Source: a virus
DNA length: 64,000 nt
IMG/VR virus record: IMGVR_UViG_3300031992_000005
Span: 32,001 to 96,000 of that record
Direction: 5' to 3' (one strand)
A program made the position numbers and the translations under genes. Below are positions 12,147-41,105 of this stretch, piece by piece (the first letter of the stretch is position 1; each line of letters opens with the position of its first letter). Below the pieces are notes generated by a model. The model searched no databases. It saw only the letters and a program-made list of their open reading frames with translations, and was not told where the DNA came from.

Positions 12147-13727
12147 TTATCTCAGTTGCGCAATAGCATTTTTCATGCGCTTAATGGTTTCTTCCTTGCC
12201 AAGAAAAGCTGCCAACTCATACATATCAGGTCCCTGTCCTGTTCCCACCAAGCAAACACGCCAAGCGTTCCAAGGCTTGAATCCATGTGCCTCCGTCCAT
12301 GCTTCAATCATTTTCTTCAGACTTTCAACAGAGAAGTCATCAAGTGATTCGAGCACACCAATAAGCTCATCCATCTCCATAGCAGTTGTTTCTTTCCAGT
12401 TCTTGCGGACAAACTTATCTTCCTTGTTGTATATTTCAGGAGTTACAAAGAAGAACTTAGTCAGCGGCCAAAGGTCACTGATGAAGCTTACATTCCTCTT
12501 CTTCTTGTTGCCGTCGTTGTCAACATATTCAATCACTTTCTGTTTCATCATCTCCACGACTTGCGCTTCCTGCTGAGGCGTGGATTCAATGCCATTAGCA
12601 CGAAGAATCTTATTAAATTCAGGAACCCACTCCTCCGCTGGCTTTTTGAGTATATACTGGTGATTGAACCAAATGCTCTTCATGTAGTCAAAATGCGCAC
12701 CACACTTTGAGCACTTACTGAGATCGAACCTCTCAATAAGTTCATCCATCGACATTAATTCCTGGTCGTTACCTGGATTCCAACCAAAGAGAGCCAAGAA
12801 ATTGACTAATGCCTCTGGCAGGTAGCCTTTTTCACGATAGCCTGGACTAACCTCTCCCGACTTAGGGTCGTGCCATTCAAGAGGGAACACAGGAAATCCC
12901 AGTTTATCGCCATCGCGCTTTGAGAGTTTTCCATTACCCATACCCACTGGCTTGAGAATCAATGGTAAATGAGCAAAGCGTGGCATTGTGTTCTGCCAAC
13001 CAAATGCTTCATAGAGCAGCACGTGAAGTGGAGCCGAAGGCAACCATTCCTCACCACGAATAACGTGGGAAATCTTCATTAAGTGGTCATCCACAATGTT
13101 TGCCAAGTGATAAGTAGGCAATTCATCAGCACTCTTGTAGAGTACCTTGTCGTCGAGGATACTGCTGTTAATGCTTACATCGCCACGAATCAAGTCATCC
13201 ACATGCACATCACGTCCTGGCTCAATCTTAAAACGAACCACATACTGTTTGCCGTCAGCAATCAGTGCATCCACTTCTTCCTTACTGAGAGTGAGAGAAT
13301 TACGCATCATCATGCGGGTTTTGGCATCGTATTGGAAGTTCTCTATTTCCTGACGCTTAGCATCAAGTTCCTCGGGTGTGTCGAAAGCAAGATAAGCTTT
13401 GCCATCGTCAAGCAACTGCTGTACATATTTCTTATAGATGTCACGGCGTTCACTTTGGCGATATGGGCCATAGTTGCCACCAAAGGAAACACCTTCATCG
13501 AATTTGATTCCTAACCAATTGAACGACTCAATGATATACTCTTCAGCTCCTGGAACAAAACGATTGGAATCGGTGTCTTCGATACGGAAAATCAAGTCAC
13601 CACCATGTTGTTTTGCGAACAAGTAATTGTAGAGAGCTGTGCGAACCCCACCAATGTGCAGAGGTCCTGTTGGGCTGGGTGCAAAACGCACTCTTACCTT
13701 ATTAAATTCATTTGTTTTTGTTACCAT
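12147..13727 (-). CDS. gltX: glutamyl-tRNA synthetase (class I)
   Basis: [17 protein letters not shown] (HIGH motif), [21 protein letters not shown] and GKLSKRDG (KMSKS motif). Full length at 526 aa. Visibly higher GC than its neighbours. Confidence 0.95.
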
Positions 13728-18053: not shown

Positions 18054-18228
18054 AGCAATTGACTCTATCTCTGGAAAATTGGTATCTTGGCCGATAATAG
18101 TAGTGCTAGTATCTATTGCGCACTATTGTTTTGCGGCAATGCATTTCCTATTTGAAACTTATCTTTATCTCTTCAATAGAGATCAGTTTGAATTAAATAT
18201 GGTATCCTTAAGCAAGAGGTTAGCATGA
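17977..18228 (+). CDS. small membrane protein (start uncertain)
   Basis: Hydrophobic core SWPIIVVLVSIAHYCFAAMHFLF and an ATGA overlap with the next ORF. It overlaps the upstream gene by 50-77 nt depending on the start chosen. Confidence 0.4.
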   Translation: MKYSRLLKIMLEKEKIHWRRLKNLFKAIDSISGKLVSWPIIVVLVSIAHYCFAAMHFLFETYLYLFNRDQFELNMVSLSKRLA

Positions 18229-18380
18229 AAAAGACTAGTTTCTGGCATAACCTTCTTAGGGGAATGATATACCTCCTGGTATGCAAAGGCATATTTTGGT
18301 TAATGCCTTTTCAAGATGCCATAGTACTTATCTCTGCGATAGTAATATGTAATTTGGATCTCATAAATGAGAAAAAATAA
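18225..18380 (+). CDS. small membrane protein (51 aa, below ORF-track cutoff)
   Basis: Translated by hand as MKKTSFWHNLLRGMIYLLVCKGIFWLMPFQDAIVLISAIVICNLDLINEKK. Starts in an ATGA overlap and is followed by a terminator. Confidence 0.5.
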   Translation: MKKTSFWHNLLRGMIYLLVCKGIFWLMPFQDAIVLISAIVICNLDLINEKK

Positions 18381-18390
18381 AAAAGAAAGA

Positions 18391-18421
18391 ATAGAGCCCG
18401 AAAGGACTCTATTTTTTTTTG
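18391..18421. terminator. intrinsic terminator (GAAA-looped hairpin plus T9)
   Basis: ATAGAGCCC-GAAA-GGACTCTAT followed by TTTTTTTTT. An A/T-rich run upstream allows action on the minus strand too. Confidence 0.7.
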
Positions 18422-18591
18422 TCTCCAAAGATTAAACGTTTATTTTAAAAGCTTTAGTTCTAATTCACCGTTTCCGCCTGAGGTTCTATACATACATATG
18501 TATAGATTACCTGGCATCTTCAGTACGAGCTTCACCCGTATACGATTTATCAGACCTAAAGTGTTAAAATTGTTTCTATAAAGGTTACAAA

Positions 18592-18640
18592 TAAGAAAAG
18601 AGAACCTTAACTGAAATTGTTGTGTGTGTTAAAGTTCTCT
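18592..18640 (-). terminator. candidate terminator for the 58-aa minus-strand ORF
   Basis: Imperfect ~11-bp hairpin (18600-18611 pairs with 18628-18639), followed on the minus strand by TTTTCTTATTT. Confidence 0.4.
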
Positions 18641-18648
18641 TCTCTCCA

Positions 18649-18825
18649 TTAGAGTTTGTCTGTCACCGTTTTCAGGTGAAACAAACAGTACGTTGTCATC
18701 AAGAACCAGATACCAATTGAAATCTGGTTCTCACAGAATGGCCGGTAATCGGCCAAAAGAAGTGCTAATCCAAAAAACATTCCTATGAAGGAAATAATTC
18801 GGATTATTTTAACTAATTTTTTCAT
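18649..18825 (-). CDS. small two-TM membrane protein (58 aa, below ORF-track cutoff)
   Basis: Translated codon by codon as MKKLVKIIRIISFIGMFFGLALLLADYRPFCENQISIGIWFLMTTYCLFHLKTVTDKL, with two clear hydrophobic helices. Confidence 0.5.
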   Translation of the reverse strand: MKKLVKIIRIISFIGMFFGLALLLADYRPFCENQISIGIWFLMTTYCLFHLKTVTDKL

Positions 18826-18829
18826 GTCG

Positions 18830-19480
18830 CTAATTTTTTTTTGTTATAATTTCTATAAATAGGTTACCTATATCTTCTCTATATAGGATTTATGATCTCC
18901 GATTATAGTTCACTGTGAGTATTTTTCTATTTATACTCTGACCTCTTCGGTCTTTAGATTCCTATAATAGTCAGGCTGTAACCTAACCACCGGATATCAC
19001 GCTCTATTACTTCAATGATTTGGATTTACAGATCCTCCTCATCTTTTCATAGTTCCTCAGGACGTCCTGAGTACTGCGCTTTGATCGAGACCCTGCCAAA
19101 GATTCTTCATCTTCAGGTTTCTCGTCCCGTAGATAATCTCTTCGATTATCCAAAATTTTGTATAAAAATTATTTTAAAATACCCCAAACGTACCTCAATA
19201 TTTGTGGGTACTGCGGGGTATGTGTCTATAAATAATAGTGTTATTGTCTTCTTTAACACTTTAACCTTTTATACGCTCTGAGCCAATACATCAATCGGGT
19301 ATAACAACTTCCCTTTTTCCCAATCTCCTGGTAAGATTGATGCGCTATGCTATTTTCTGTTCGCTCAGACGAACCCAAGTACTATCTATCTTGGCTGTCC
19401 TTATATAGGTCCCCCATAGCCACCTTCAGTATGCCTATATAAGTTAGTAGTATACGTTTCAACTACATAGTATCGGTATA
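18830..19480. ncRNA. ORF-free, hairpin-dense island; candidate large structured RNA or long leader (strand unresolved)
   Basis: About 650 nt with no convincing ORF and locally raised GC. Perfect hairpins include 18867-18887, 18940-18952, 19056-19071, 19132-19150 and a two-tier one at 19182-19218. Bounded by a palindromic promoter-like box at 19498. Confidence 0.3.
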
Positions 19481-19497
19481 TATTTATTCATATATAA

Positions 19498-19511
19498 CCT
19501 TATATATAAGG
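19498..19511. promoter_or_regulatory. perfect 14-nt palindrome CCTTATATATAAGG (promoter-core-like on both strands)
   Basis: Read directly. It contains the CCTTATATA core of the recurrent promoter motif in both orientations. Confidence 0.4.
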
Positions 19512-19686
19512 CTTTCACCAGATAACAAAAAGGAAAAAAATTTCGGTCTATTTCCTTAAGAATGTACTAAAATTATGAATATTATGAGAAAATTAGTGAA
19601 TTTTAACATGGGAACGCTATTATTAATAAATTTTTTAGTAATGGCAGTTATTACATTAGTGAGACTTGGTTATCGGATCGCTGAAA

Positions 19687-20271
19687 ATGGATATTAAAAT
19701 TTGGGATGGAGGCTATTTTTATAGTTTTGTGGGGAAATACTATCCCCAACTAGACTATAAAACTGAGTTTGAACAATCTACAGATCCTATTGGTACGGAT
19801 CCAAATCTCCCTATTCTTGATTTCAAAGAACGTATCCTATTAGTTGCGCCTGATGTTAAAACGGGTGACATAATGAAGTTTAGTTCTACTAGAATTCTAC
19901 TTAGTAAATGTAGGAAGAAGTATAATGTGGTCGAGCAGGTGCATATTGTACATGAGTATTTTTACCCTTTTAATAAGATAATAGCTAAACTTCCACTCTA
20001 CATGAGGTATTGCTATATCTTCGGAGATAAGAATCAAGTCCTGGAAGAATATAAAGATATTCTAAAAAGAAGCTACCAAAAAACCTTATCACAACAAGTA
20101 GTGAAAACTACGGTACTAGAAGCGATTAAAAGTACCATCGAAGAGTATTCTAAAGTGGGTACGAGAATTGTTATAATAAGTGCAGAAAGAGATCAAGAGC
20201 ATTCTTTTAAGAGTGTTCTAGTGAATTCTTTGAGAGAGAATGGAATAATTGTGGAAAAATTATGGGATTAG
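19687..20271 (+). CDS. hypothetical protein (194 aa; first ATG used)
   Basis: The ORF track starts at a non-ATG codon (19666). The first ATG is at 19687 (MDIKIWDGG...). Confidence 0.55.
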   Translation: MDIKIWDGGYFYSFVGKYYPQLDYKTEFEQSTDPIGTDPNLPILDFKERILLVAPDVKTGDIMKFSSTRILLSKCRKKYNVVEQVHIVHEYFYPFNKIIAKLPLYMRYCYIFGDKNQVLEEYKDILKRSYQKTLSQQVVKTTVLEAIKSTIEEYSKVGTRIVIISAERDQEHSFKSVLVNSLRENGIIVEKLWD

Positions 20272-20756
20272 TATTAGCATGTAGCAGGTTTAGCTTTCCT
20301 AAGTATGTTGAAGAATTTGGCGGACCTAATTCAAAGGATTCCGCTTACATATCTATATCAGCAACCAAGGAATGCGCAGAATATTATCTACAATATAATC
20401 TAAGTAGAGATTGGGAAAGTGAATGTTCTCATTATCTCTTAGATTCTGATAATGTTTGTAATGTAAATTTCGATGACCTAGAGAAAGATATTGTTTTTAC
20501 GGATAACATAGTATTCAGAACAATATCAGAAGAACAGGCGAAGAAAATTGTTCTTTTTATTGAGAAGAACTTAGGAAAAAATTTCCTAATTCATTGTAGA
20601 GCTGGCATGAGTAGAAGTCAAGGAGTAGTTAGGTTTATCTTAGATACCTACCCCGATTATAAGGAACACCCTGATAATCATTGCATTACTCCTAACATGG
20701 AAGTTGTAAGAAAGCTTAAGAATGAATATTGCAAAATAAAAAAAGAAAGGGATTAA
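20262..20756 (+). CDS. Cys-based protein tyrosine/dual-specificity phosphatase-like protein
   Basis: Signature HCRAGMSRS matches the HC(X5)R(S/T) P-loop of PTP/DSP enzymes, in the C-terminal half of a 164-aa protein. Confidence 0.7.
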   Translation: MGLVLACSRFSFPKYVEEFGGPNSKDSAYISISATKECAEYYLQYNLSRDWESECSHYLLDSDNVCNVNFDDLEKDIVFTDNIVFRTISEEQAKKIVLFIEKNLGKNFLIHCRAGMSRSQGVVRFILDTYPDYKEHPDNHCITPNMEVVRKLKNEYCKIKKERD

Positions 20757-20781: not shown

Positions 20782-20991
20782 TTACGTATCTCTTGTAAGT
20801 ATTGTCCAGAATATGGCTACTATTAATACGATCATTACTATAGGCCATAGCCATAGCATGAAAAACTTCAAGATACGCTCTAAGAGTTTATTCTTGAAAG
20901 TAATTCTCCTAGTAAGATTATATTCCTGTAGGGTCATAAATCCTACTATCAAGTAGCAAATTACTATAAATGTAATTTCAATGTAACCCAT
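20782..20991 (-). CDS. small two-TM membrane protein (69 aa)
   Basis: Two hydrophobic helices. Overlaps the upstream gene by 14 nt. Confidence 0.55.
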   Translation of the reverse strand: MGYIEITFIVICYLIVGFMTLQEYNLTRRITFKNKLLERILKFFMLWLWPIVMIVLIVAIFWTILTRDT

Positions 20992-22471
20992 AAAACGCCT
21001 TTCTAATTTTTATTAATATATCATCTACTACAGATTTGTCAATTTCATCAGGGAGAGATGAATTAGCCATAGCCTGTTTCATCTCCTCGTCTTTACTTTC
21101 TAAGAATTTCATAAGATCATCATATACGACATTACCTTCTCGAATATTCATCAAGAATTCTCTATCGATATTTCTTCGATCTAATTTCATGCCTTCTCCT
21201 TTGGCGATCTCAATTCCCATTGTTAAGAGTCTAGCACTATGACAAGCATTTTTCAGGTCATAATGTCCTTTCTTTGCGAGATTAAATCTCTCTTCATTAT
21301 GATGCTTATTCCAGTCATTGTATTCATGATACTGCTTACAATAGTTCGAGTAGCCATCTTTATTATAAGATACATCAATGAGAGGCAACTCACCTTTCGG
21401 AATGGAGCTTAGTCTTACTTGATTACTAGTATCAGCCAAGTTAACTAATCCCTTATAGCCAAAAGGCTTTTTATATCTCTCCCAAGTGAGATGAATGAAA
21501 TCTCCTTCATCATATGCCCCGAATAATGTAAAAGCATTTACGAATAGTAATTTCCAGAATGGATCAATATCTTGGAAATTCTCCGTGAACGTATTGGAGA
21601 ATTTTGGCAAATGTTCTGCAAATTCTTCTTCTGTTGTAATACCAATATCCTTAAGATGTGCTCCCCAGTCATAGTACATGCTATACATGCAGTTCATTCC
21701 GTCCAGGTTAACTAATCCACAGAATTCCTGCTTCAATTTATTGAAACCTAGGTAATCGACAACCTTCTTAACATCACCGTCAACTGCATATAAGATATAC
21801 TCTAGACAGCTCTTAAGTGGACCTGTCATAGGTTGAGTAATTTTCTTCTTTAGATCCCTAGCTCTTTCAATCTGAGTCTTAGCATATCCTAAGAATGAAT
21901 GGAAGCATTTCTTAGTGATAAACCTATCTCTTTCCTGTAAGATAATATCCATTAATGGATGTTTATAAAGAATTTTATCTTCAGGAACAAATAAAGACTC
22001 TAAGACATTTGGATTTGATTTAAGCAAGAGGAGAAGAAATTTTTTGAGACTAAACCAAGACTCATTATTATCCCGAGTATTAATATCCTCTGGAAAATCC
22101 AGTCCTGTTCCAAAACAGATTTCCATAGGTTCAATGAATACTCCGCCATGATCTTCATCGCTTTCTGGCCTATCTAAGCCATATAAACGACTACCACGTA
22201 TATATTCATATAACAAGAACCCATTTTTTCTAATGTAATCAAATTCAAAATGATCTAATGAATAGTCATCCTGAATAGCTACATTAGTAGTACAGAATTC
22301 ACTATTAATTTCTATTGTATAAACTTTACCAACTTCTACTATGAAAGTTTTTTCAAGTAAGTCGATAACAGTTCCTACCATTCTCCAACACCATCTATGC
22401 TGAAGAATTATTAAGGTTGACCCTTTTTCAATAGTCTTTCCATAAAAGTCTACAAATTTCATTTTTTCCAT
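20978..22471 (-). CDS. pol-beta-superfamily nucleotidyltransferase-like protein (497 aa)
   Basis: IRGSRLYGLDRPESDEDHGGVFI fits the GS-x(9-10)-[DE]xD minimal nucleotidyltransferase motif (the 'predicted nucleotidyltransferase' type seen in phages). Confidence 0.55.
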   Translation of the reverse strand: MEKMKFVDFYGKTIEKGSTLIILQHRWCWRMVGTVIDLLEKTFIVEVGKVYTIEINSEFCTTNVAIQDDYSLDHFEFDYIRKNGFLLYEYIRGSRLYGLDRPESDEDHGGVFIEPMEICFGTGLDFPEDINTRDNNESWFSLKKFLLLLLKSNPNVLESLFVPEDKILYKHPLMDIILQERDRFITKKCFHSFLGYAKTQIERARDLKKKITQPMTGPLKSCLEYILYAVDGDVKKVVDYLGFNKLKQEFCGLVNLDGMNCMYSMYYDWGAHLKDIGITTEEEFAEHLPKFSNTFTENFQDIDPFWKLLFVNAFTLFGAYDEGDFIHLTWERYKKPFGYKGLVNLADTSNQVRLSSIPKGELPLIDVSYNKDGYSNYCKQYHEYNDWNKHHNEERFNLAKKGHYDLKNACHSARLLTMGIEIAKGEGMKLDRRNIDREFLMNIREGNVVYDDLMKFLESKDEEMKQAMANSSLPDEIDKSVVDDILIKIRKAFYGLH

Positions 22472-22698: not shown

Positions 22699-23964
22699 TT
22701 AGGAAAATATCTTATTTTCTAACTGGATGCTTGATCCGATATTGTCTCCATTCCTACTCTGAATGAAAGTCAATAGGCCGAGCTTCTTTAATCCAAGCAA
22801 AACTACTGCTGCAAAATCCTTTGGATATACACTTTGAATTACTGAAGCAAGTCCCCCAGACAGTTCTGCATCTAAAACTCTCAGAGACAAATTGGCTGTC
22901 TTTTCTGCAAATAACAGTATTGCATTCATTATACCTAACCAAGCCACAATCTTATTGAAGTTAAAGGTTGGACTCAAGAATCTAAATTCTACAGTCTTAT
23001 TAATCCTATAACACAATAAGTTGACTAAGTTCATCCAGTAATATCTGGTAGGTATTCTCCATTTTGCCTCACGAGTAATATCACGTGGATGTGGTTGTGT
23101 GAAACTACCCATGTAATTCTTACCCACCAGGTATGCATATAGTGCATTGAAATTTGGCAGAGAATCTATACTAGGCAATTTCTTACAGTAATCCTTGCCA
23201 GTAGCCTTATACTCTGAACTTCTAAATGCCAGAGGTGGAAGAATAGTCGATAATTCGCATTCTAGCTTCTTACAAACTCGATAGAGATTATAGACTACTT
23301 CTGGTACCATAGGGTAACCCCCCAGGTGAACATGCAGAGAACATTCCTTATTAAAGATGGTATATTCATTCAGGGTATCTACTTGTTGACGAAGGAGATT
23401 AATTCCCTCATTTCCAGAAAGAACCACGGTTGAATATTCCAATCCACCGATAGATCCATCTCTTAGTGGAATAAGACCGTCTCTGAAACAGAGGTGTTCT
23501 GGAATATATCCACCACTTGTCTCAAACTCAAGACCAAAGGTATACTTGAGATATTTAGACAGTTCATAGAAGTCTATCTTTAATAGCTTCTGCTTATCCT
23601 TGAAAATGTCAAAGCTTTCTACAGCCTCATATTTTCTGACGAATCTCTGATAAGGATATCTACCATTTCCATAAGTGAATCTCTCACGAAGATAACCTTC
23701 CTGCGAAAAATCTACAAATTTACTGAAATAAACACCTTGTAAGTTACTGTAGAAAATCTTATCCTTCACCAGCTCATAGCAAGCATTTACTGTTCTGAGA
23801 GAATGTGGGTCTTTGTCGTAATCAATCAACATTAATTGAATGATAGATGCTCTATCCGCTACATATCCGTATATTATGTGGCCATCTTTTAAGAGATCAA
23901 CCACCACTGACATACATCTTCCTTTATTCTCTAGATTTCCAGTATAACTATCTACTACTTTCAT
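22699..23964 (-). CDS. glutamine-synthetase-fold amidoligase (Amidoligase_2-like)
   Basis: GLEFETSGG ... LRDGSIGGLEYSTVVLSG ... CSLHVHLGG ... EFRF follows the E.E / DGS..E / HVH pattern of predicted COOH-NH2 amidoligases. Sits in an operon with two GATases. Confidence 0.6.
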   Translation of the reverse strand: MKVVDSYTGNLENKGRCMSVVVDLLKDGHIIYGYVADRASIIQLMLIDYDKDPHSLRTVNACYELVKDKIFYSNLQGVYFSKFVDFSQEGYLRERFTYGNGRYPYQRFVRKYEAVESFDIFKDKQKLLKIDFYELSKYLKYTFGLEFETSGGYIPEHLCFRDGLIPLRDGSIGGLEYSTVVLSGNEGINLLRQQVDTLNEYTIFNKECSLHVHLGGYPMVPEVVYNLYRVCKKLECELSTILPPLAFRSSEYKATGKDYCKKLPSIDSLPNFNALYAYLVGKNYMGSFTQPHPRDITREAKWRIPTRYYWMNLVNLLCYRINKTVEFRFLSPTFNFNKIVAWLGIMNAILLFAEKTANLSLRVLDAELSGGLASVIQSVYPKDFAAVVLLGLKKLGLLTFIQSRNGDNIGSSIQLENKIFS

Positions 23965-23970
23965 GTTACT

Positions 23971-25392
23971 TTAACCTTTAAATAAGCGAGCAACAAGCGT
24001 TGCTATCTCTGATTTCGTAAATTGTTGATTTGCTTCAACGGCTTTAAATGGTTTACTATACTGTTGACCATAACAAGTCGTTACCAAAGAGCCGTCCCTA
24101 TAGGACTTGGAAAATCCTTCACCCAATCTCTGAATGTGCCCTGTAAAAGGTACCGTCTTAGATCCTTCAACAACTTGGTGAACAATATTCTTGTCATCTA
24201 TGTAGAAAGGCTCTAAGCTGAGATATCTAATCAAGTAGCAATTCTTGATTAAGAAATCCTTGACAGAGGCACAGGTCTTTTTTCTTTGCACGGAAACTTC
24301 TTCCTCGTGTGTTATATATTTCCAGCACCTCTTATTTAAGAGTGGAATTCCGTTATAAAACCAAACTGAATGGGTTGTACAGTTTTTATCTTTTCCAAGA
24401 TCTGCCTCAGGAATTACTCTACCATAAATTGTGAGGTTATACTTACCATTCATAGGTACACCCCTCAATTGATAGGTGAAGTTCTCCATTGCTCTTATGT
24501 AATTAGACTGATGATATACACCATCACTATCATAATAGCCATTATAGACATGAGTATTTCCAAAGGCAGTGGTACCAACACCATTAAAACCAACGGTAGG
24601 TACTCCTCCCCCACTATAATATGTGGCTTTATATGGTTTCGTTTGGATAGCTTTATCTCTACTATAAACTCCAAGATCCACTAATCCATCCTCAGCTGTA
24701 TAAGACATTAAGTGATTTCCGTCAATGGTATATACCTTTTGTCCTCTTCTAAGGGCATCGAGATATTTACCTATTGATGAGAATACAATCTCATCTTCCG
24801 AATCATCAAAAGTCATATACAAAGGTCTTTCTTCCTCAGGCTTTACCGAATATTCTGTTCTCTTAGATATTCCCTTGAAGAACAGACACTTAGGGCTATC
24901 TACTCGATAGTCAATGATTACAAATACACTACCGCCATTATATTCTGACAGTACGTCATATCCCTTGTAATAGAAGATCCTGGCCATGACTTGTGAATCA
25001 GTCATGTCATCTATCTTAATGTTTGGGATATACTTTTGAGCAAGTTCTTTGTAATTATAGATTGTACCGTTATGAAGAACTACAAATCTGATTCTTCCAG
25101 ACTTATCCTTCAAAACAACAGGCTGAGCAGTTCTTTCATTGATGGCACCAACAGATGCTTTTCTACAATGTCCAACTGCTATCGTAGACTCTTTTTTATT
25201 TTTCAGAATCTTACTTTCAGTGAAGAAGTCTTGAAACAGCTTATTATCTCTAACGCCGTATTCATATTCTCCATCGATGAAGATTCCACACGAATCTCCG
25301 CCTCGGGAATCATTGTTGACCCCGAGTACAGAGAATGTAGAATAGTCGAATGCCCGTTTTTTCCTATTTATTATTCCGAAAAGTCCGCACAT
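23971..25392 (-). CDS. class II (Ntn) glutamine amidotransferase domain protein with large C-terminal extension
   Basis: The N-terminus MCGLFGI has the Cys2 nucleophile, followed by NNDSRGGDSCGI, GHCRKAS and LHNGTIYN, typical of PurF/GlmS/AsnB-type GATase domains. Confidence 0.8.
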   Translation of the reverse strand: MCGLFGIINRKKRAFDYSTFSVLGVNNDSRGGDSCGIFIDGEYEYGVRDNKLFQDFFTESKILKNKKESTIAVGHCRKASVGAINERTAQPVVLKDKSGRIRFVVLHNGTIYNYKELAQKYIPNIKIDDMTDSQVMARIFYYKGYDVLSEYNGGSVFVIIDYRVDSPKCLFFKGISKRTEYSVKPEEERPLYMTFDDSEDEIVFSSIGKYLDALRRGQKVYTIDGNHLMSYTAEDGLVDLGVYSRDKAIQTKPYKATYYSGGGVPTVGFNGVGTTAFGNTHVYNGYYDSDGVYHQSNYIRAMENFTYQLRGVPMNGKYNLTIYGRVIPEADLGKDKNCTTHSVWFYNGIPLLNKRCWKYITHEEEVSVQRKKTCASVKDFLIKNCYLIRYLSLEPFYIDDKNIVHQVVEGSKTVPFTGHIQRLGEGFSKSYRDGSLVTTCYGQQYSKPFKAVEANQQFTKSEIATLVARLFKG

Positions 25393-26198
25393 GTTATTTC
25401 TTCTTCTAAGATATAGAACTTTCTAATTAATTCTTTTGCTTTTTCTGCATCACTATTATTAATAGCGACGATAGTATCCTCATACAAAGGAATATTCGAG
25501 CAACTATTATAAGCATTGATTGCTCTCATAACCTGATGGAACACAAACTTAATTGTTTTACTGTTCTTCATCATAGCGCTGGATAATACTCGATACTCAA
25601 CGCCATAATCGGTTAATCTGAAAGCTCCTGCCTTACCATACAGCGATCTTCTCCGAGTATCGGTATCAATAATCACTGATGGTAGTCCTACGAATGCATC
25701 CAGGTACTTTACAAGACACACTGAATCCTCGATATTAGGATTTTCATATCCAATATGCACATGGAATCCTGCTGATCTTAAGCAGGTATTCGTTCCCTTT
25801 GGCTTTGGATTTTCATTCTCAGTGTATGCATTGTAGTCAGGAGAGCACCCAAATAGTTTTGCCAATGGGTGTCTCAGCTGCGTCTTTGGTACCATTTCAC
25901 TTGCAGAACATTTGATTTCCAAATTTGGATCAATGTTCTTGATGTAAGTTGTAATATACTTTTTCATGTAATTGATGTTGTTAAGGAAAGCCAGTTCGCT
26001 AGTAACTGGTGGGATATTGAATTCGGCTAAGATATTATCTATCTCCAATCCAAATCCTTTTGGCATGTCCTCACCAACCCAAGGATTTCCTTTTTCTCCT
26101 GGAATAATACCGATAGCTGATACTACTGGCTTATCGGTTTTTGCACCGTTTACCAGGAACAACTCGGGATCTGCCCCAATTGTAACTTGACTAATCAT
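25371..26198 (-). CDS. phiEco32-like COOH-NH2 ligase type 2 (second amidoligase)
   Basis: IGADPELFLV at the N-terminus, GLEIDNILAEFNIPP and GFHVHIGY resemble the phage COOH-NH2 ligase family. Adjacent to both GATases. Confidence 0.55.
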   Translation of the reverse strand: MISQVTIGADPELFLVNGAKTDKPVVSAIGIIPGEKGNPWVGEDMPKGFGLEIDNILAEFNIPPVTSELAFLNNINYMKKYITTYIKNIDPNLEIKCSASEMVPKTQLRHPLAKLFGCSPDYNAYTENENPKPKGTNTCLRSAGFHVHIGYENPNIEDSVCLVKYLDAFVGLPSVIIDTDTRRRSLYGKAGAFRLTDYGVEYRVLSSAMMKNSKTIKFVFHQVMRAINAYNSCSNIPLYEDTIVAINNSDAEKAKELIRKFYILEEEITCADFSE

Positions 26199-26850
26199 TG
26201 TTCTTTTCCTCCTTTAATTTGATTTGTACAAGCTGACTTTCGATCAATTCGTTCAACATCTTCACCACTGGCTCAGTATCTCTCATAATCTCTGGATGAC
26301 CTTGAATTGCAAGGCATCTTGGATTTCCAGGCTTGGTATAAAGCACTACTTCAGGCTCCACCTTGATTGAATGAACATCAATCTTATCGCCTGCATAATA
26401 ACTGCTAATAGCATTTGCCCAATAGAGGATCTTGTATTCGTTACCAGGTAGATCAAATGGATACTGCATCTGATGATGAGTCGATGTGATCTGATAAGCA
26501 ACACTGCCATTTGTGATCTCATGTGTTCCGTATCTTGCATGACGATCACAATCCTGAATCAACTTACCTCCGTTCATAACGCAGAGGAACTGAGATCCAC
26601 GGCAAATACCAACTGCCAACTGACTTGGTTTGATCGAATCGAACACCTTCTTTTCTGCAGAGTCTCTACCCGCACTGTAATGCGTAGTCGAATGTGCCTG
26701 ACAGCCATAGAGAGATGGATTTACGTCTTCTCCACCAGTGAAAAGCACTACATCTGCATTCTTGATGTCCTTCACCAATTCATGATTGTTAATGAAATTC
26801 GCATAATAGGTTGAACCACCTACTACAAAAACTTTAATCTTCTTTTCCAT
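26191..26850 (-). CDS. class I glutamine amidotransferase / gamma-glutamyl hydrolase-like (peptidase C26-like)
   Basis: Nucleophile elbow GICRGSQFL and catalytic IQGHPE, on a Rossmann-like N-terminus (KVFVVGGS). Confidence 0.75.
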   Translation of the reverse strand: MEKKIKVFVVGGSTYYANFINNHELVKDIKNADVVLFTGGEDVNPSLYGCQAHSTTHYSAGRDSAEKKVFDSIKPSQLAVGICRGSQFLCVMNGGKLIQDCDRHARYGTHEITNGSVAYQITSTHHQMQYPFDLPGNEYKILYWANAISSYYAGDKIDVHSIKVEPEVVLYTKPGNPRCLAIQGHPEIMRDTEPVVKMLNELIESQLVQIKLKEEKNND

Positions 26851-26855
26851 AAAGT

Positions 26856-27695
26856 TTACTTTGATTTAAGAAATTTTTTTGAAATTTTATCTAATATTTC
26901 TCTGTAAACAGAGAATCGTACTTCTCTTTCTTCGCGATTTTCCAGGAATTCTTGTAAATCTCCAGGAAACGCGACAGATGATTTTTTTATTTCACTCAAC
27001 ATTACAAAATCACTTTTTGATAAAGCATGATTTGATGTATATGTTGTAAAAACATTGTTTAATCTACAATTGTCGTATTCGTTTATAAGGTATTCAAGGC
27101 TTGTCTTAATACACCTATTGTTACGATAAATTGGACTATTCGATGAGGGATCAATAAGACTATGTAATTCAAATTCACAAGTACGTCTCGATCCAACATC
27201 AGACACTGTTCTATTCAACAGTGATATCATATTGATTAAACTGACAAACGAATACTTGGGATTATTCTTATGAGCTTTTATAAACTCATGAGCCTCAAAT
27301 AGTAAGAGGTTGTATGGGAATTCATACAGTAGCCTAGTCCAGGCTAGTATGAACTTGTGGTATAATTTTCTACCACCTACATGAAATGCAATTCTAACAT
27401 ATTTATGATTTTGCCATGTATAATCCCCTACCAGTACTTTTGACTCTTTACCTATCAGCTTGAGCCCAAGTTTTACATAGTTCCTAATGAAAGTCTTATC
27501 AAATGGGGCAAAATTGCTATAATGATTTTTCTTTATAGATTCATTTGTCGTATCGACAAGAATTCTATATGTAGAATCAAGCTCACTCTCCGGACTATTA
27601 AAGATGGTTCCGAAGCATGCATGACTATGAAAATTCTTATCTTCTTCTCCTATACAATAAATTGTACGATAACTAATGCATCTCCAATAACTCAT
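26856..27695 (-). CDS. hypothetical protein, paralogue of 27702..28610
   Basis: Shares YHKFILAWTRLLYEFPYNLLLFEAHEF..HKNNPKY with AHKYALFYLRRAYEFPFNMILMDVYRIRRNNPKL in its neighbour. Confidence 0.6.
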   Translation of the reverse strand: MSYWRCISYRTIYCIGEEDKNFHSHACFGTIFNSPESELDSTYRILVDTTNESIKKNHYSNFAPFDKTFIRNYVKLGLKLIGKESKVLVGDYTWQNHKYVRIAFHVGGRKLYHKFILAWTRLLYEFPYNLLLFEAHEFIKAHKNNPKYSFVSLINMISLLNRTVSDVGSRRTCEFELHSLIDPSSNSPIYRNNRCIKTSLEYLINEYDNCRLNNVFTTYTSNHALSKSDFVMLSEIKKSSVAFPGDLQEFLENREEREVRFSVYREILDKISKKFLKSK

Positions 27696-27701
27696 ATAGC
27701 A

Positions 27702-28610
27702 TTATTTTCTAAAATGTTGTCTAACTATATCGTAAATTTCTAGGTATCGATTATTTTTTGCCTCAATTATTTGAGGCTTTAACCAATTTTCTAGGTTACC
27801 TTCTATATCTGTCCCTAAAAGACTTTCTTTTACTAACCTTGTCGAATTATTTGAGAAATATTTCCTAGCAGTTTCCTCTGTAGAAATTGATTTCAAAAAG
27901 TCCTTTGATTTTTGATAACTAACCCAAGACTTTATTTCATCTGTTCCCGTCAGATAATCTAGCCTGTTAGATCTTCCTCCAAAATCAAAATTATCCAATA
28001 AGTTACGAATTTCTTTGTTACTGAACATAAAGCTTCTTGGACCAAAGTTTATATCATGTCCAGAAACAGGAGTAGCAAAAGCTAGTTGATATATTGAATA
28101 TAAGGTCTGCAAAGGTATTCTCCATAACTTAGGATTATTTCGTCTAATCCGATATACATCCATTAATATCATATTAAATGGAAATTCATAAGCTCTTCTT
28201 AAATAGAAGAGAGCATACTTGTGAGCTATAGGTCTACTGTTTATCGTAAAAGATACCTCAAACGCTGGATAACGCTGTATAAAAATATCTTCTATTCTAA
28301 TATCAGATATATCTACTATCTTCACTAACGTCTTGATATACTGTAATAACTGTCTCTTATTAAAGAAACACTTATTATTTATTGAAGAACTGAGTAATTC
28401 TTCTTTATGAGCATCAAGAAATACAAGACTATATCTCAATTCAACTCTCTGATAGCTAGTTATCTTATTTTCTGCTATCTTAGCATCGAAAGCTGAGAAT
28501 ATGGTATTGAAACAAGCACTGTTAGCTACATACCCAACTCCTGTGCTATGAAGGAGCTTTCCTTTATACTTATATAAAGTCTTGAAATTCAAAAACCTAA
28601 ATTCGTTCAT
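27702..28610 (-). CDS. hypothetical protein, paralogue of 26856..27695 (start refined)
   Basis: The 18-codon N-terminal extension in the track (to 28664) is the upstream terminator hairpin read as protein. ATG at 28610 (MNEFRFLNF...). Confidence 0.6.
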   Translation of the reverse strand: MNEFRFLNFKTLYKYKGKLLHSTGVGYVANSACFNTIFSAFDAKIAENKITSYQRVELRYSLVFLDAHKEELLSSSINNKCFFNKRQLLQYIKTLVKIVDISDIRIEDIFIQRYPAFEVSFTINSRPIAHKYALFYLRRAYEFPFNMILMDVYRIRRNNPKLWRIPLQTLYSIYQLAFATPVSGHDINFGPRSFMFSNKEIRNLLDNFDFGGRSNRLDYLTGTDEIKSWVSYQKSKDFLKSISTEETARKYFSNNSTRLVKESLLGTDIEGNLENWLKPQIIEAKNNRYLEIYDIVRQHFRK

Positions 28611-28620
28611 ATTGAATTTA

Positions 28621-28658
28621 AATAAAAAAGTAGAGTACCCCCACAGAAGGTACTCTAC
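28621..28658 (-). terminator. strong intrinsic terminator
   Basis: Perfect 10-bp stem GTAGAGTACC/GGTACTCTAC (28630-28639 with 28649-28658), followed on the minus strand by TTTTTTATT, about 20 nt after the stop at 28679. Confidence 0.75.
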
Positions 28659-28678
28659 ATACAAACGGTTACTTAATC

Positions 28679-29806
28679 TTAGTCTTCGTCGTCTTCAGCT
28701 TCCTTTTCCTTTTCTGGCTGCTTTGCCTCTTCTGGAGCTGGCTGTGGTTGAGGCTGAGCCTGACCACCGAACAGACCACCAAAGAGTCCGCCACCGTTAC
28801 CATTTCCACCGAAAGCGCCGAACGCCTGCATCATCAACAAATCCTTGAAGCTAGACTCGTCACCGTCCTTGTCACCCAAGAAGGCCAACATTGCCAAGTT
28901 ATTTGGAGCCACCTGACCATTGTTCTGGCTGAGGAGCATGAGTGGAAGGAGCTTTGAGAACTTTCCTTCACCTTCACCTTCATCGTCGTTGAGCGCCAAA
29001 AGCATCATAGGGTTGATACCACCACCGAAATTACCTGCGAGCGGAGAAACTACTACACGAACGTAGCTCTCGTTGAACAGGAAGTCCTTAATGGTGTGGA
29101 TAGTCTTGCCCGAACCGGTATAGCTGATCGCCTTGATCTTACCGAATTCGCCGATCTTAATGATCTTAGCAAAACTTCTGTCAAGAGCGATAACGTCACC
29201 CACCTGCAGCTGAGCCTTAGGCTTGCTGATTGTGTAAACTGGAACTGGAAGCGTAAACTCTTTTGGATAAGAGATAAGCTCGTTGTTCTGATTGATTGTG
29301 ACGTAACCTTCGTCGGTTTCTACACAGATGTTACCATCCTGTGCTACTCGTACACCCTTCACCTCTCTTGGCATCAATGTGTCCTTGAGGCGAGCCATGC
29401 AACCTGAAATAGAAGAATTTTTCTTCATGCTGTTTTCCTCCTTGCTTGAATTGTTTGTTTTATTGAATACTGGGATTGCTTCCTTACACCAGGTCTCGTA
29501 ACGAACTCTGTTAGCTACACTGGTGATATTTACTTTCTTAAGACCATAAGATCTCTGGAGTTCGTCAATGTACTCCTGATCTTCCGCAGAGAGCTCATCA
29601 ATAGACTTATCGAAAGTCTTAATGATGTAGAGCGAGTTACCTTTCTTCGTAATGATATTGTCGCCGGCATTTACACCTGTAAGGTGAGCATTGAGTTCTA
29701 CGTTTGCAATGTAAAACTTGCTGTTCTGCTGAGCGAACTTGATTACATCCTTGATGTTCTTAGGAACGAATCCTAGATTAGATGTATAGACAACAAATTT
29801 GTTCAT
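28679..29806 (-). CDS. hypothetical protein with G/L/M-rich C-terminal half and acidic tail (375 aa); GC-rich gene
   Basis: Intact ORF. The 3' two-thirds is conspicuously GC-rich with G/C-ending codons, unlike its neighbours. It has its own terminator. Confidence 0.7.
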   Translation of the reverse strand: MNKFVVYTSNLGFVPKNIKDVIKFAQQNSKFYIANVELNAHLTGVNAGDNIITKKGNSLYIIKTFDKSIDELSAEDQEYIDELQRSYGLKKVNITSVANRVRYETWCKEAIPVFNKTNNSSKEENSMKKNSSISGCMARLKDTLMPREVKGVRVAQDGNICVETDEGYVTINQNNELISYPKEFTLPVPVYTISKPKAQLQVGDVIALDRSFAKIIKIGEFGKIKAISYTGSGKTIHTIKDFLFNESYVRVVVSPLAGNFGGGINPMMLLALNDDEGEGEGKFSKLLPLMLLSQNNGQVAPNNLAMLAFLGDKDGDESSFKDLLMMQAFGAFGGNGNGGGLFGGLFGGQAQPQPQPAPEEAKQPEKEKEAEDDED

Positions 29807-36247: not shown

Positions 36248-36727
36248 ATGAACAATAGAAATTATTTAGGATTCTTAAAAGAAAAACAGCAATTGTTTAA
36301 TAGAATTGGAATCAAGTGTAAAAGTTTAGATGAACAAGTTTACAAGCTTGAACAAAATGAAAAAGATCTAAGTATTCTTGTAGAAGATCTCAGCGAAAGA
36401 GTTCCATTCAGGCCATTAGTGAAATGTGGAGTAGTAGGTTACCCATTCATCTTAGTGGGAATTGATGTAACTCATGAGAATGTTGCAGTACAGTTGATAA
36501 ATACTTTCAACCATATAAAATTTGAAACAACAATCGATAAGGTAAGACTGTACTTGAGATCTCTAGAGAATATGACAGAGGAAGAAAAACTGGAGGAAGA
36601 AAGACTCCATGATCCTCGAATCTGTATCTCTGAATTAATAACATTCTATAAGAAGAATAACCTCGATTATAGAGGCCTTATCCCAAGAGGTCTTGCAATC
36701 GAACAAATCCCAGAAAACCATGAATAA
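36248..36727 (+). CDS. family A small protein, diverged outlying copy
   Basis: Central LYLRSLENMTEEEK and C-terminal LDYRGLIPRGLAIE match the anchors of the 45-55 kb array. Confidence 0.7.
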   Translation: MNNRNYLGFLKEKQQLFNRIGIKCKSLDEQVYKLEQNEKDLSILVEDLSERVPFRPLVKCGVVGYPFILVGIDVTHENVAVQLINTFNHIKFETTIDKVRLYLRSLENMTEEEKLEEERLHDPRICISELITFYKKNNLDYRGLIPRGLAIEQIPENHE

Positions 36728-36845
36728 GTTATTACAACAACTTTGCGAGGAATTACCTAATTATTCTACAGGTAAAGACGGTAAGCCTTACTTAAGGCCA
36801 TTAACTAACATGACCGAAGAAGAATTAAGGACATTTCGAATTTAA
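36720..36845 (+). pseudogene. truncated family A copy (41 codons: N-terminal and central anchors only)
   Basis: Hand translation gives MNKLLQQLCEELPNYSTGKDGKPYLRPLTNMTEEELRTFRI-stop. It lacks the whole C-terminal anchor. Confidence 0.6.
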
Positions 36846-36848
36846 GTG

Positions 36849-37082
36849 ATGACTCTTGTAAAAAAATTAGGAGAAAAGTTATATAACTGGACAAATAAAA
36901 ACCTACACTTCCTAATTGGTATTGCAATAATAGGAATTGTCTGTTCTATTATTGGACACTATGGAACAATGGGATTTGATCTCAGGTGGTTTTTTGGATT
37001 TGAATTACCATTATACCTATTTCTCCTTTGGGCTATTTTTAAAATAATGAAAATTTTTAAAAATAATGGATCAAAAAGATAA
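36849..37082 (+). CDS. small two-TM membrane protein (77 aa)
   Basis: Hydrophobic helices FLIGIAIIGIVCSIIG and LPLYLFLLWAIFKIM. ATG at 36849. Confidence 0.55.
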   Translation: MTLVKKLGEKLYNWTNKNLHFLIGIAIIGIVCSIIGHYGTMGFDLRWFFGFELPLYLFLLWAIFKIMKIFKNNGSKR

Positions 37083-37527
37083 GGAAAAATTAATTCAGAT
37101 TATTTGTGCAATGTTTCCCTACGGTTTAAACTGCTACTACACAATAGATGAAAAGTGGCATAGTATTACCGGAGTAGAAAATGATGCGGTGAGGTTATTG
37201 GGATCTAACGGTCGTCATGAATTTGTTGAAAAGTGGGAAGGAGATCTAGATACAATCAAGATCGGACTTCGACCACTATCTACAATGACCGAAAAAGAGA
37301 AGGAAGAACTATATACAGATCCAGATACTGATTATCTTTGTCGTGCAACAGTAATTGTTCCAGAAAATGAAGAAATTTATTTTAGGTTTGTTGATACCAA
37401 AATCGAATTTCTTTATAAAAACGTTACATTCTTCTTTAAGAAGAAATTTGATATATTGGGTCTAATAGAACAAGGTTTAGCAAAAGAGTATAACTATGAT
37501 AATGATAAATCCTTGGGCAGGATATGA
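37066..37527 (+). CDS. family A small protein, diverged outlying copy
   Basis: KLIQIICAMFPYGLNC, IGLRPLSTMTEKEKEEL and FDILGLIEQGLAKE are collinear with the array anchors. Confidence 0.7.
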   Translation: MDQKDKEKLIQIICAMFPYGLNCYYTIDEKWHSITGVENDAVRLLGSNGRHEFVEKWEGDLDTIKIGLRPLSTMTEKEKEELYTDPDTDYLCRATVIVPENEEIYFRFVDTKIEFLYKNVTFFFKKKFDILGLIEQGLAKEYNYDNDKSLGRI

Positions 37528-37804
37528 TCCAGATGATATACCTGACCTAAATCCTCATAGTAAAGAGGAGGAATATGGATGTATTGCAGGAATTATAGCA
37601 TTCTGTTTATCTTCTGCTATATTCATTGCACTTCAGGCAGTGATATTGAAGCTTAAATTAAGCGACACCATAGATACAAACATGCATATGGCCCTCATCT
37701 TAGTAAATATAATCATTTTTGTGATTATAACAATATGTTTTATGAAGCTGTCTTTTAAGATAGCTGATTATCTCTATGATAGAAATAAAAAGAAAAAATT
37801 ATGA
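37496..37804 (+). CDS. small membrane protein (102 aa)
   Basis: Two TM helices and a basic C-terminus, with an ATGA overlap to the next gene. Confidence 0.5.
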   Translation: MIMINPWAGYDPDDIPDLNPHSKEEEYGCIAGIIAFCLSSAIFIALQAVILKLKLSDTIDTNMHMALILVNIIIFVIITICFMKLSFKIADYLYDRNKKKKL

Positions 37805-39840: not shown

Positions 39841-39844
39841 AATT

Positions 39845-40072
39845 ATGGAAACACCAGAGAAGATCTATATTCGTGTCAAAAACGGTAAAGTACTTAACAC
39901 ATGGAATAGTATGTGGAAAGGCGTTAATGACGTTGAGTACTTACGCAAGGATGCTTTTATGGAAAAAGTTTATAAATGTATTAAAGAGAACTTTCCGGAA
40001 ACAGACTCCCGTTTTGATGAAGATTTTACCGAAAAGTTAATCAGTTCTTTCCGTAAAGTAGTAGAAGAATAA
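39845..40072 (+). CDS. hypothetical protein (75 aa)
   Basis: Intact ORF packed between its neighbours. Confidence 0.5.
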   Translation: METPEKIYIRVKNGKVLNTWNSMWKGVNDVEYLRKDAFMEKVYKCIKENFPETDSRFDEDFTEKLISSFRKVVEE

Positions 40073-40074
40073 TT

Positions 40075-40242
40075 ATGAAAGTAATTAAACAAAGGAATGA
40101 AAAAGAAGTTTCCTGTCCAAAATGTAAAACTACTTTTCTTTATGCACCACAAGACATATACCATACATCAGATTTAGACAATGAATGGTTTTATGCAGTG
40201 AAATGCCCGGAGTGTGGAAAGGAAATACAAATCAGAATATAA
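40075..40242 (+). CDS. zinc-ribbon miniprotein (55 aa, below ORF-track cutoff)
   Basis: Hand translation gives MKVIKQRNEKEVSCPKCKTTFLYAPQDIYHTSDLDNEWFYAVKCPECGKEIQIRI, with CPKC...CPEC. Confidence 0.5.
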   Translation: MKVIKQRNEKEVSCPKCKTTFLYAPQDIYHTSDLDNEWFYAVKCPECGKEIQIRI

Positions 40243-40250
40243 ATTATAAA

Positions 40251-40418
40251 ATGGATATAGAGAATTTTAAATTAGTTATATGCGCTATTGCTCTTATAGC
40301 ATACGCCGCTTTAGTAGAATGTGGTGTCAAAAAAGCTAAAAGCAAAAAACTCAGAATATACCATATTGTTGAGTTAATTGGTATTTTGATAATATACTAT
40401 TTTCGTAGTAAAAATTAA
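40251..40418 (+). CDS. small membrane protein (55 aa; start refined)
   Basis: The track ORF from 40185 overlaps the zinc-ribbon ORF. The in-frame ATG at 40251 gives MDIENFKLVICAIALIAYAALVE..., with two hydrophobic helices. Confidence 0.45.
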   Translation: MDIENFKLVICAIALIAYAALVECGVKKAKSKKLRIYHIVELIGILIIYYFRSKN

Positions 40419-40431
40419 ATAATTAATAGTT

Positions 40432-40557
40432 ATGGAACCAAAAGAAAAAATCACATTGCCTCAATGGTTCTACGAAAAGTCAACCGAATTGAGGATAGAG
40501 TTTGACAGAAAGATGGACTATCTTATGGCAAAATTATATAACCTTGATAACAATTAA
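40432..40557 (+). CDS. hypothetical miniprotein (41 aa)
   Basis: Hand-translated intact ORF that fills an otherwise empty gap. Weak evidence. Confidence 0.3.
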   Translation: MEPKEKITLPQWFYEKSTELRIEFDRKMDYLMAKLYNLDNN

Positions 40558-40561
40558 AAAT

Positions 40562-40735
40562 ATGATGCCTATGTTTCCACACCAACGACAACTAGTTAGA
40601 GCTCTTAGAACACTTATACCTCCTAATTGTGGGGATGGTAAGAAAATCGAAATAGTCAGTGTTTATGACCAAAGACCAGATGACTGGAATAGACCTGATT
40701 ATTTAAATTATGAGCACCTAAAACAATCAAAATAA
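40562..40735 (+). CDS. hypothetical miniprotein (57 aa; start refined)
   Basis: The in-frame ATG at 40562 (MMPMFPHQRQ...) avoids overlap with the 40432 ORF. Confidence 0.4.
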   Translation: MMPMFPHQRQLVRALRTLIPPNCGDGKKIEIVSVYDQRPDDWNRPDYLNYEHLKQSK

Positions 40736-40746
40736 AAAGTATAGTT

Positions 40747-41085: not shown

Positions 41086-41105
41086 TAATAAATAAAAAGA
41101 CAGTT

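Follow-up and report, generated by a model that had tools for sequence, protein, structure and literature searches.

Phages phiEco32, LUZ24 and PaP3 encode a module in which a ligase of family PF14395, an amidoligase of family PF12224 and a class II glutamine amidotransferase (GATase) with an N-terminal cysteine lie on one strand. A cassette with the same three components, all phage-encoded and on one strand, is found in a 64,000-nucleotide (nt) stretch of viral DNA, positions 32,001 to 96,000 of IMG/VR record IMGVR_UViG_3300031992_000005 (the whole stretch is called the window, and coordinates are counted from its first letter). On sequence grounds, this cassette is a new, seven-gene variant of the phiEco32/LUZ24-type phage amidoligase module. 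As relayed by later papers (PMC11945000, PMC10580990, PMC11318856), the gene set was predicted by Iyer et al. (2009) either to synthesize a secondary metabolite or to modify peptidoglycan, which would exclude superinfecting phages or make the wall ready for lysis. The passages of these papers that deal with the gene set cite only that prediction and speak of a putative cell-wall or secondary-metabolite module; they also trace it to the comparative-genomics work to which an initial annotation of the window had referred. That annotation had added that product and target were still to be determined, and a full-text literature search likewise returned no experimental work on the module and no determined product or target.

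The cassette of the window departs from the phiEco32/LUZ24 module in several respects. Its carrier is an uncultured jumbo gut phage of ~350 kb, of which the window is a part; megablast against GenBank phages returned no near-identical DNA for the window. The identical class II GATase protein is encoded on public contigs of up to 353,905 bp, and homologues of it on contigs of 160-350 kb. Among the Pfam hits of the window's open reading frames (ORFs), there is neither an ATP-grasp enzyme nor a gamma-glutamyl cyclotransferase (GGCT), and the slot of the ATP-grasp gene is taken by a gene for an unassigned protein, called X here. Whereas the proteobacterial versions contain gp17-like proteins of ~190 amino acids (aa) and ~300-aa proteins with a 'CFG' motif, the window has a peptidase C26-like protein (C26) and two members of a family called A4 here. 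The C-terminal domain of the window's class II GATase is also unrelated, at the profile level, to that of the phiEco32/LUZ24-type versions. The closest annotated relative is found instead in the crAss-like phage cr108_1 (Steigviridae; MT774385 gp_22626-22632), in which six genes follow the identical order: A4, A4, C26, ligase, class II GATase and amidoligase. The ligase, for which cr108_1 is the best match among GenBank phages, is 48% identical, the amidoligase 41% (E 2e-69) and the class II GATase 35%. However, the cr108_1 cassette is headed by an ATP-grasp gene and lies between a primase and a uracil-DNA glycosylase gene, whereas that of the window is headed by X and has unrelated flanks.

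The co-conserved block spans 22699-29806 on the minus strand and consists of seven genes. It is headed by the gene for X (28679-29806, 375 aa), followed by A4 paralogue 1 (27702-28610, 302 aa from an ATG start, MNEF...), A4 paralogue 2 (26856-27695, 279 aa), the class I GATase or peptidase C26-like thiol amidohydrolase (26191-26850, 219 aa), the phiEco32-type COOH-NH2 ligase type 2 (25371-26198, 275 aa) and the class II GATase (23971-25392, 473 aa); the Amidoligase_2 gene (22699-23964, 421 aa) is the last of the block. Junctions within the cassette range from -22 to +6 nt, except for a 68-nt gap after X, which holds a terminator-like hairpin (28630-28658, minus strand) with a 13-bp stem followed by TTTTTTATTT. 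The initial annotation had described a cassette of four consecutive, overlapping minus-strand genes. The four genes are real and lie where it had placed them, but one of the three junctions between C26, ligase, class II GATase and amidoligase (-8, -22 and +6 nt) is a 6-nt gap and not an overlap, and the block continues upstream to 29806 with three more genes. On the 3' side of the amidoligase gene, a 227-nt gap precedes a gene for an RlaP-family nucleotidyltransferase (20978-22471, minus strand; PF10127 E 4.8e-21, phrog_388 E 7.6e-50). This gene was considered as a member of the cassette and rejected because of the gap and because it is absent from the otherwise identical contig L007, as it is from all related loci. 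None of the seven cassette proteins showed a transmembrane-like or signal-like segment in a crude hydropathy scan.

The composition of the module was assessed across its relatives. A scan of IMG/VR with the ligase alignment yielded at least 514 related stretches; 80 of these loci, together with loci from GenBank and metagenomes, were annotated with local profiles, and components were counted over 55 de-replicated loci. The COOH-NH2 ligase is present in all 55 by construction. Amidoligase_2 is found in 52, the remaining three loci being cut by contig ends, and C26 in 50. The N-terminal domain of the class II GATase was detected in 49, and GenBank annotates a GATase in 3 of the other 6. A4 is present in 35 loci and the gp17-like protein in 8, and the two never occur together. 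GGCT, with 14 of the 55, is an optional component. ATP-grasp (40 loci) and X (15 loci) divide the set completely: no locus has both and none has neither. The gp17-like family has no Pfam match; its gene stands between ligase and amidoligase in proteobacterial and Zobellviridae cassettes (L003 6773-7342, which is LUZ24 gp17; L010 3990-4538; L008 8823-9428; and equivalents).

The module is essentially restricted to phages. The gene set is annotated in phiEco32-like, LUZ24-like, 7-11, Zobellviridae and crAss-like phages, and the ligase occurs in 314 GenBank phage records, chiefly of Pseudomonas, Escherichia, Vibrio and Aeromonas phages. In a survey of cellular genomes with the ligase alignment (one genome per species, 185,579 species), only 38 loci were found, nearly all on phage-sized contigs of metagenome-assembled genomes whose taxonomic assignments disagree with one another, a sign of mis-binned phage DNA. 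A tblastn survey of 72,556 plasmids gave no hit for the ligase and one weak hit for the amidoligase. Of the 'phage and plasmid system' initially proposed, the phage part stands, and the plasmid part is not supported for this cassette. The phages that carry the cassette are apparently virulent.

The cassette proteins were searched against Pfam and NCBIfam, each with its curated cut-offs (for Pfam, gathering cut-offs), and against PHROGs, and conservation was read from the alignment columns of 45-55 de-replicated homologues per family. The four families named in the initial annotation were recovered, with Pfam scores above the cut-offs and PHROGs in agreement. The motifs on which it had relied are all present in the translations (GICRGSQ and QGHPE in the class I enzyme, IGADPELF and GFHVHIGY in the ligase, MCGLFGI in the class II GATase, and LEFETSGG, DGSIGGLEY and LHVHLGG in the amidoligase), and their residues sit on columns that are invariant or at least 90% conserved.

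The 275-aa ligase matches PF14395 (COOH-NH2_lig) with E 5.4e-12 and 45.9 bits, against a cut-off of 25 bits, and over its full length phrog_3815 ('COOH.NH2 ligase', E 1.9e-65); D10, E12, K36, D54, E59, H148, R183, E201 and R203 are invariant in 48 de-replicated sequences. The 421-aa amidoligase matches PF12224 (Amidoligase_2) with E 2.8e-06 and 27.8 bits, against a cut-off of 22 bits, and phrog_2443 with E 5.3e-14; G144, E146, E148, D169, S171, E176, H211 and H213 are invariant in 55 sequences. Judged by family membership, both are predicted to have the glutamine-synthetase/glutamate-cysteine-ligase (GS/GCS) fold of ATP-dependent carboxylate-amine ligases. Catalytic and metal-binding residues are conserved, in the ligases as columns of acidic, His and Arg residues. 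In such ligases, an acyl-phosphate is formed and then coupled to an amine.

The ligase gene is repeatedly split in other phages (L002 5475-6786, which is Bas89_0083/0084; L015, L016, L087 and L093). In Bas89, the ligase is annotated as a join of two pieces with an HNH endonuclease gene inside, and in L016 the two ligase fragments flank a LAGLIDADG-type ORF; splits also affect some C26 and amidoligase genes (L016, L018, L042). This pattern suggests invasion of conserved genes by homing endonucleases or introns.

The two amidotransferase-type enzymes belong to different classes. The 219-aa class I enzyme fits Peptidase_C26 (E 3.9e-15, 56.6 bits; cut-off 20.5 bits) far better, at the level of sequence profiles, than the generic GATase model, whose match (E 0.0037) falls below its cut-off, and it also matches phrog_7218 (E 9.6e-33). 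Cys83, His185 and Glu187 are at least 90% conserved, and an HHQ motif at 125-127 is invariant. The class II GATase matches GATase_6 (E 1.3e-13) and GATase_7 (E 6.3e-10) in its N-terminal half only. Aligned to PurF, its Cys2 falls on Cys1, GHCRKA on GHTRYA, HNG on HNG and TDSQ on SDSE; Cys2, Arg77, Asn108-Gly109 and Asp132 are invariant among 38 homologues. The roles of this Arg, Asn-Gly and Asp in binding glutamine are known from PurF and GlmS. An AlphaFold model (pLDDT 84.6) resolves two folded parts, an N-terminal nucleophile (Ntn) domain (1-250) and a second domain (285-473), joined by a disordered linker (255-284). Foldseek with the whole model returned GlmS, PurF and AsnB (E ~1e-10), and the query-normalised TM-scores of ~0.4 are consistent with matches that cover only the Ntn half. 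The C-terminal extension had already been noticed as a region without a recognised fold; it is folded in the model, and residues 285-473 have no sequence match in Pfam or the PDB. A profile of this domain matches 27 of the 55 loci and leaves the LUZ24, phiEco32 and PA11 versions unmatched, so that the domain is, by profile comparison, lineage-specific.

The resemblance of the class II GATase to housekeeping enzymes raises the question of whether these are ordinary auxiliary metabolic genes, that is, phage-borne versions of PurF, AsnB, GlmS, GuaA or glutamine synthetase that raise the supply of nucleotides or amino acids. GenBank often labels the class II GATase 'L-glutamine-D-fructose-6-phosphate aminotransferase', and its N-terminal 140-215 residues do resemble PurF, AsnB and GlmS. 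The likeness stops there: against the glmS, purF and asnB models of NCBIfam the protein scores 35-51 bits (cut-offs 267-570) through its first 140-215 residues only, the glutaminase domain alone, and the synthase domains of such enzymes (phosphoribosyltransferase, SIS, PP-loop) are absent, with a domain in their place that is unrelated by sequence. The class I enzyme comes nearest to the gamma-glutamyl-CDP-amidate hydrolase model of NCBIfam, with 24 bits where 250 are required. NCBIfam gave no match for either ligase, and the ligase family is almost absent from cellular genomes. No PurF-, AsnB- or GuaA-type orthologue, the outcome that the initial annotation had set against its own assignment, was thus found (16-51 bits against cut-offs of 198-570). 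An ordinary biosynthetic role is effectively refuted.

The two A4 genes are paralogous to each other (BLASTP E 2e-13). The longest ORF of paralogue 1, with a TTG start, reaches 28664, and public-contig gene calls give the 302-aa form, which the A4 profile matches with E 3e-53; paralogue 2 carries the motifs 'ACF' and 'HKYxLTWxRYLYEFPYN'. A search of 1.84 billion proteins gave 119 representatives of the family, which corresponds to no Pfam family and matches no PDB sequence. Cys27, His113, Arg121 and Glu125 do not vary within the closer family; in the wider set, Cys27 alone is invariant, and Phe28, Arg121 and Glu125 are at least 90% conserved. The AlphaFold model of the 279-aa protein is confident (pLDDT 88, pTM 0.89). 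Foldseek found no fold match for it in the PDB (best E 0.28), and in a viral structure library it matched only the crAss-like phages cr108_1 and ctelJ1, two proteins in each (E 3e-8 to 4e-7); the A4 profile recognises both of the cr108_1 genes, annotated as 'hypothetical' (E 4e-17 and 3e-16). As modelled, A4 is a new, uncharacterised family with a fold that has no solved relative.

A4 is closely tied to C26, since 43 of 45 A4 genes adjoin a C26 gene or another A4 gene. In contig L056 (6794-8329), a single ORF of 511 aa joins C26 at residues 7-211 to A4 at residues 225-510. Duplicated A4-C26 pairs occur on other contigs (L022, L047, L049). The cassettes of LUZ24 (gp14 and gp15), Bas89, 7-11 and Aeromonas 4_4572 contain ~300-aa proteins that share with A4, by eye, an N-terminal C[FYW]G and an Arg-helix. 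Homology between A4 and these 'CFG' proteins was considered and is not claimed, because the A4 hidden Markov model (HMM; E >0.4), hhalign (probability 0.2%) and an iterated A4 profile, which failed to reach the LUZ24 gp14/gp15-type proteins, were all negative. A homologue search with gp137 of an Aeromonas phage, run for the same comparison, gave a single match.

Protein X occupies the head position that ATP-grasp has in the sister cassettes. Homologues (E 1e-66 to 1e-113) lie directly upstream of the cassette in loci L014-L017, although the flanking genes differ. There are 258 homologues of X, none with a name or a Pfam domain, and X itself has no Pfam hit, no meaningful PHROG match and no sequence match in the PDB. 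Conservation covers residues 1-340; Met, Leu and Gly are frequent in the C-terminal region, and the protein ends in a variable, charged tail of low complexity. X as a diverged ATP-grasp enzyme was rejected at the limit of detection, since hhalign against 44 ATP-grasp proteins gave a probability of 0.2% (E 0.29). The exchange of the two head genes occurs among related cassettes: the ATP-grasp loci L038, L039 and L084 carry ligases that are 57-60% identical to that of the window.

The hairpin in the 68-nt gap after X was found by a consensus scan. Of 13 de-replicated X-type loci, 12 have a GC-rich hairpin with a T-run directly 3' of the stop codon of X; its stem varies in sequence from locus to locus, and the folding z-scores range from -1.0 to -4.8. 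In ATP-grasp-type loci, by contrast, only a few nucleotides separate the head gene from the next. X thus seems to form a unit of its own before the enzyme genes, terminated or attenuated by the hairpin. A sigma-70 promoter scan was uninformative (34 sites, 36 expected).

This arrangement has a bearing on a protein-tagging role, in which the ligases would attach amino acids or peptides to a phage or host protein, as RimK does with ribosomal protein S6; in this lineage the substrate would be X, overproduced from a terminated unit of its own. With a conserved terminator-like hairpin between X and the closely spaced enzyme genes, the cassette resembles operons whose structural gene is followed by the enzymes that modify its product. 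The low-complexity charged tail of X and the RimK-like ATP-grasp enzymes of the sister cassettes would also suit such a role. However, that tail is conserved neither in sequence nor in its terminal residue, X cannot be the general target because it is absent from the 40 ATP-grasp-type loci, and the replacement of an enzyme by a substrate in the same slot would be an odd swap. Protein tagging, of X or of another protein, is improbable.

The genomic setting of the cassette bears on two further proposals. In several unrelated lineages, it stands beside primase or helicase genes: between primase and uracil-DNA glycosylase in crAss-like phages, and directly upstream of primase/helicase in Zobellviridae, LUZ24-like and Rhizobium phages. 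In Aeromonas phage 4_4572 (L008 15027-16795) and Salmonella phage 7-11 (L009 5-2568), its neighbours are ribose-phosphate pyrophosphokinase and nicotinamide phosphoribosyltransferase genes of NAD salvage, probably by coincidence. The proximity to replication genes would fit a role in hypermodification of DNA or other nucleic acid, in which an amino-acid-derived side chain of a base is built or amidated after replication and shields the genome from host nucleases. Amidoligase and glutamine amidotransferase domains of unknown role do occur in some thymidine-hypermodification clusters of viral contigs (Lee et al., 2021; PMC8989533), and GATases are listed in the literature among the machinery of thymidine hypermodification. 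In contrast to those clusters, the defining families (5-hydroxymethyldeoxyuridine kinase, the amino-acid:DNA transferase aGPT-Pplase/AADT, dUMP hydroxymethylase and TET/JBP) are absent from the Pfam families listed for the 73 other ORFs of the window, which covers 64 of the ~350 kb of the genome, and from the Pfam-annotated neighbourhoods of five related contigs. The cassette proteins also have no recognisable DNA-binding or base-flipping domain, and the probability that remains for this role is small.

The second proposal places the module at the cell wall, with the ligases adding or amidating residues of the stem peptide of UDP-MurNAc-peptide or lipid II inside the cell, so as to block superinfection or to prepare the wall for the endolysin. 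It is known that peptidoglycan amidation uses an ATP-dependent ligase with a GATase, as in MurT/GatD or the AsnB-type LtsA, and the apparently cytoplasmic nature of all seven proteins is compatible with action on a precursor. To judge from the later papers that cite Iyer et al. (2009), no function other than cell-wall modification has been put forward in the literature. Conversely, the cassette is unlinked to lysis genes and adjoins replication genes in several lineages, the hosts span those of Bacteroidota-type, Pseudomonadota and other phages with differing walls, and the window has no feature that specifically indicates the cell envelope. The argument that three ligases would serve three unusual linkages is weakened here, where the ATP-grasp enzyme is missing. 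Modification of a wall precursor is thus unlikely, though less so than nucleic-acid hypermodification or protein tagging.

On balance, we lean slightly towards a cytoplasmic pathway that makes or edits a glutamate- or glutamine-derived, amide-linked compound or tag, in which A4 is the partner of C26 and X fills the role of ATP-grasp. By analogy with the same families elsewhere, the COOH-NH2 ligase type 2 and Amidoligase_2 would convert carboxyl groups to acyl-phosphates and couple these to amines. Enzymes of the Ntn and C26 types hydrolyse glutamine or gamma-glutamyl amides, either to donate nitrogen, as GatD does with MurT, or to remove gamma-glutamyl groups, as PuuD and EgtC do. The class II GATase and the C26/PuuD-like enzyme may thus work with the ligases, both binding glutamine or a gamma-glutamyl amide, and may either supply the activated carboxylates with amide nitrogen, as ammonia or a substituted amine, or remove gamma-glutamyl groups. 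C26 probably has the A4 proteins as its partners, in the role of a carrier or of an acceptor or 'synthase' subunit. X takes the position and presumably the role of the ATP-grasp enzyme of the sister cassettes and would be expressed from its own unit, ended or attenuated by the hairpin. The net product would be a glutamate- or glutamine-derived amide-linked small molecule or a peptide-like tag.

Several considerations weigh against this pathway. Its chemistry is extrapolated from distant relatives. Nitrogen donation by the two GATase-like enzymes is not separable by sequence from mere hydrolysis. The order of the ligase and GATase genes varies across lineages, which makes specific ligase-GATase pairings uncertain. 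The roles given to A4 and X come from genomic context, and only one contig shows the C26-A4 fusion. The X-type loci all come from one lineage of phages, so that the complementarity of X and ATP-grasp could partly reflect shared descent. The hairpin, finally, could mean that X is a separate transcription unit and a mere neighbour of the enzyme genes.

A stronger version of the amide-forming pathway can also be put forward. If A4 were the acceptor or 'synthase' partner of C26, the pair would constitute an amidotransferase of a novel kind, with X replacing ATP-grasp without being homologous to it; the module would make a new glutamate-derived metabolite or macromolecular modification that virulent phages of many lineages need in infection, for instance in counter-defence. 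We regard this version as possible, with the chances clearly against it.

The module is of interest because its product has been a guess since 2009, while it is carried by hundreds of virulent phages, including therapy candidates (LUZ24-like Pseudomonas phages and Kuravirus coliphages) and crAss-like and jumbo gut phages. A4, X and the hairpin add concrete units to the parts list of the module's gut-phage version. They also caution that tests confined to the four annotated enzymes may not succeed. Should the module turn out to yield a new metabolite or a modification of wall or nucleic acid, it would reveal a widespread phage strategy and new amide-forming enzymology.

Other features of the window lie outside the cassette. 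A GltX-type glutamyl-tRNA synthetase gene (12147-13727, minus strand; tRNA-synt_1c E 1e-92 in Pfam) has 'LHIGG' as its HIGH motif and 'KLSKR', and lies ~9 kb from the glutamate/glutamine-handling cassette; its product is 39-49% identical to those of 'huge phages' of 630-735 kb and 62-68% identical to those of human faecal phage contigs. Near the RlaP gene, a small protein (20262-20756, plus strand) has a weak dual-specificity-phosphatase signature. At 36248-54976 on the plus strand, a tandem family of small proteins comprises at least 17 ORFs of ~110-200 aa with mutual similarity of E 1e-5 to 1e-30, and two smaller sets of paralogues are found at 55322/55659/59743/60232 and 37801/41013/42031. 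Two BspA-type leucine-rich-repeat proteins are encoded at 1715-2926 (minus strand; LRR_5 E 3.5e-74) and 61191-62111 (plus strand; E 2.6e-14), the latter with a weak dockerin-like segment; this type of protein is typical of phages and bacteria associated with the gut. The interval 18054-19665 (~1.6 kb) contains no ORF of at least 100 aa, no public-contig gene call, no tRNA, no Rfam match and no notable tandem repeat.

Outside phages, the nearest parallels to the cassette are pairs of enzymes. PuuA/PuuD in putrescine metabolism, EgtA/EgtC in ergothioneine synthesis and the lipid II amidotransferase MurT/GatD each couple a ligase to a glutamine-type amidohydrolase acting on gamma-glutamyl amides, and in butirosin synthesis BtrJ/BtrG is an ATP-grasp and GGCT pair that works on a gamma-glutamyl amide, GGCT being an enzyme of gamma-glutamyl amines. 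In PuuA/PuuD, EgtA/EgtC and BtrJ/BtrG, the ligase is of the GS/GCS-fold or ATP-grasp type and its partner is a class I (C26), class II (Ntn) or GGCT enzyme. The window's C26 protein resembles this group in matching Peptidase_C26 and carrying the HHQ motif, although no NCBIfam model scores above its cut-off and there is thus no orthology. In MurT/GatD, a stand-alone GATase subunit feeds ammonia to an ATP-dependent ligase that activates a peptide carboxylate. MurT has the Mur-ligase fold and GatD is of the CobQ type, whereas the ligases of the window are assigned to the GS/GCS fold and its class I enzyme is C26-like, so that the likeness is functional only. In comparison with the PuuA/PuuD, EgtA/EgtC and BtrJ/BtrG systems, the window combines two such pairs with three further proteins. 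The module itself had already been predicted; what is new in the window is the seven-gene parts list, the A4 family, the swap of X for ATP-grasp and the conserved hairpin.

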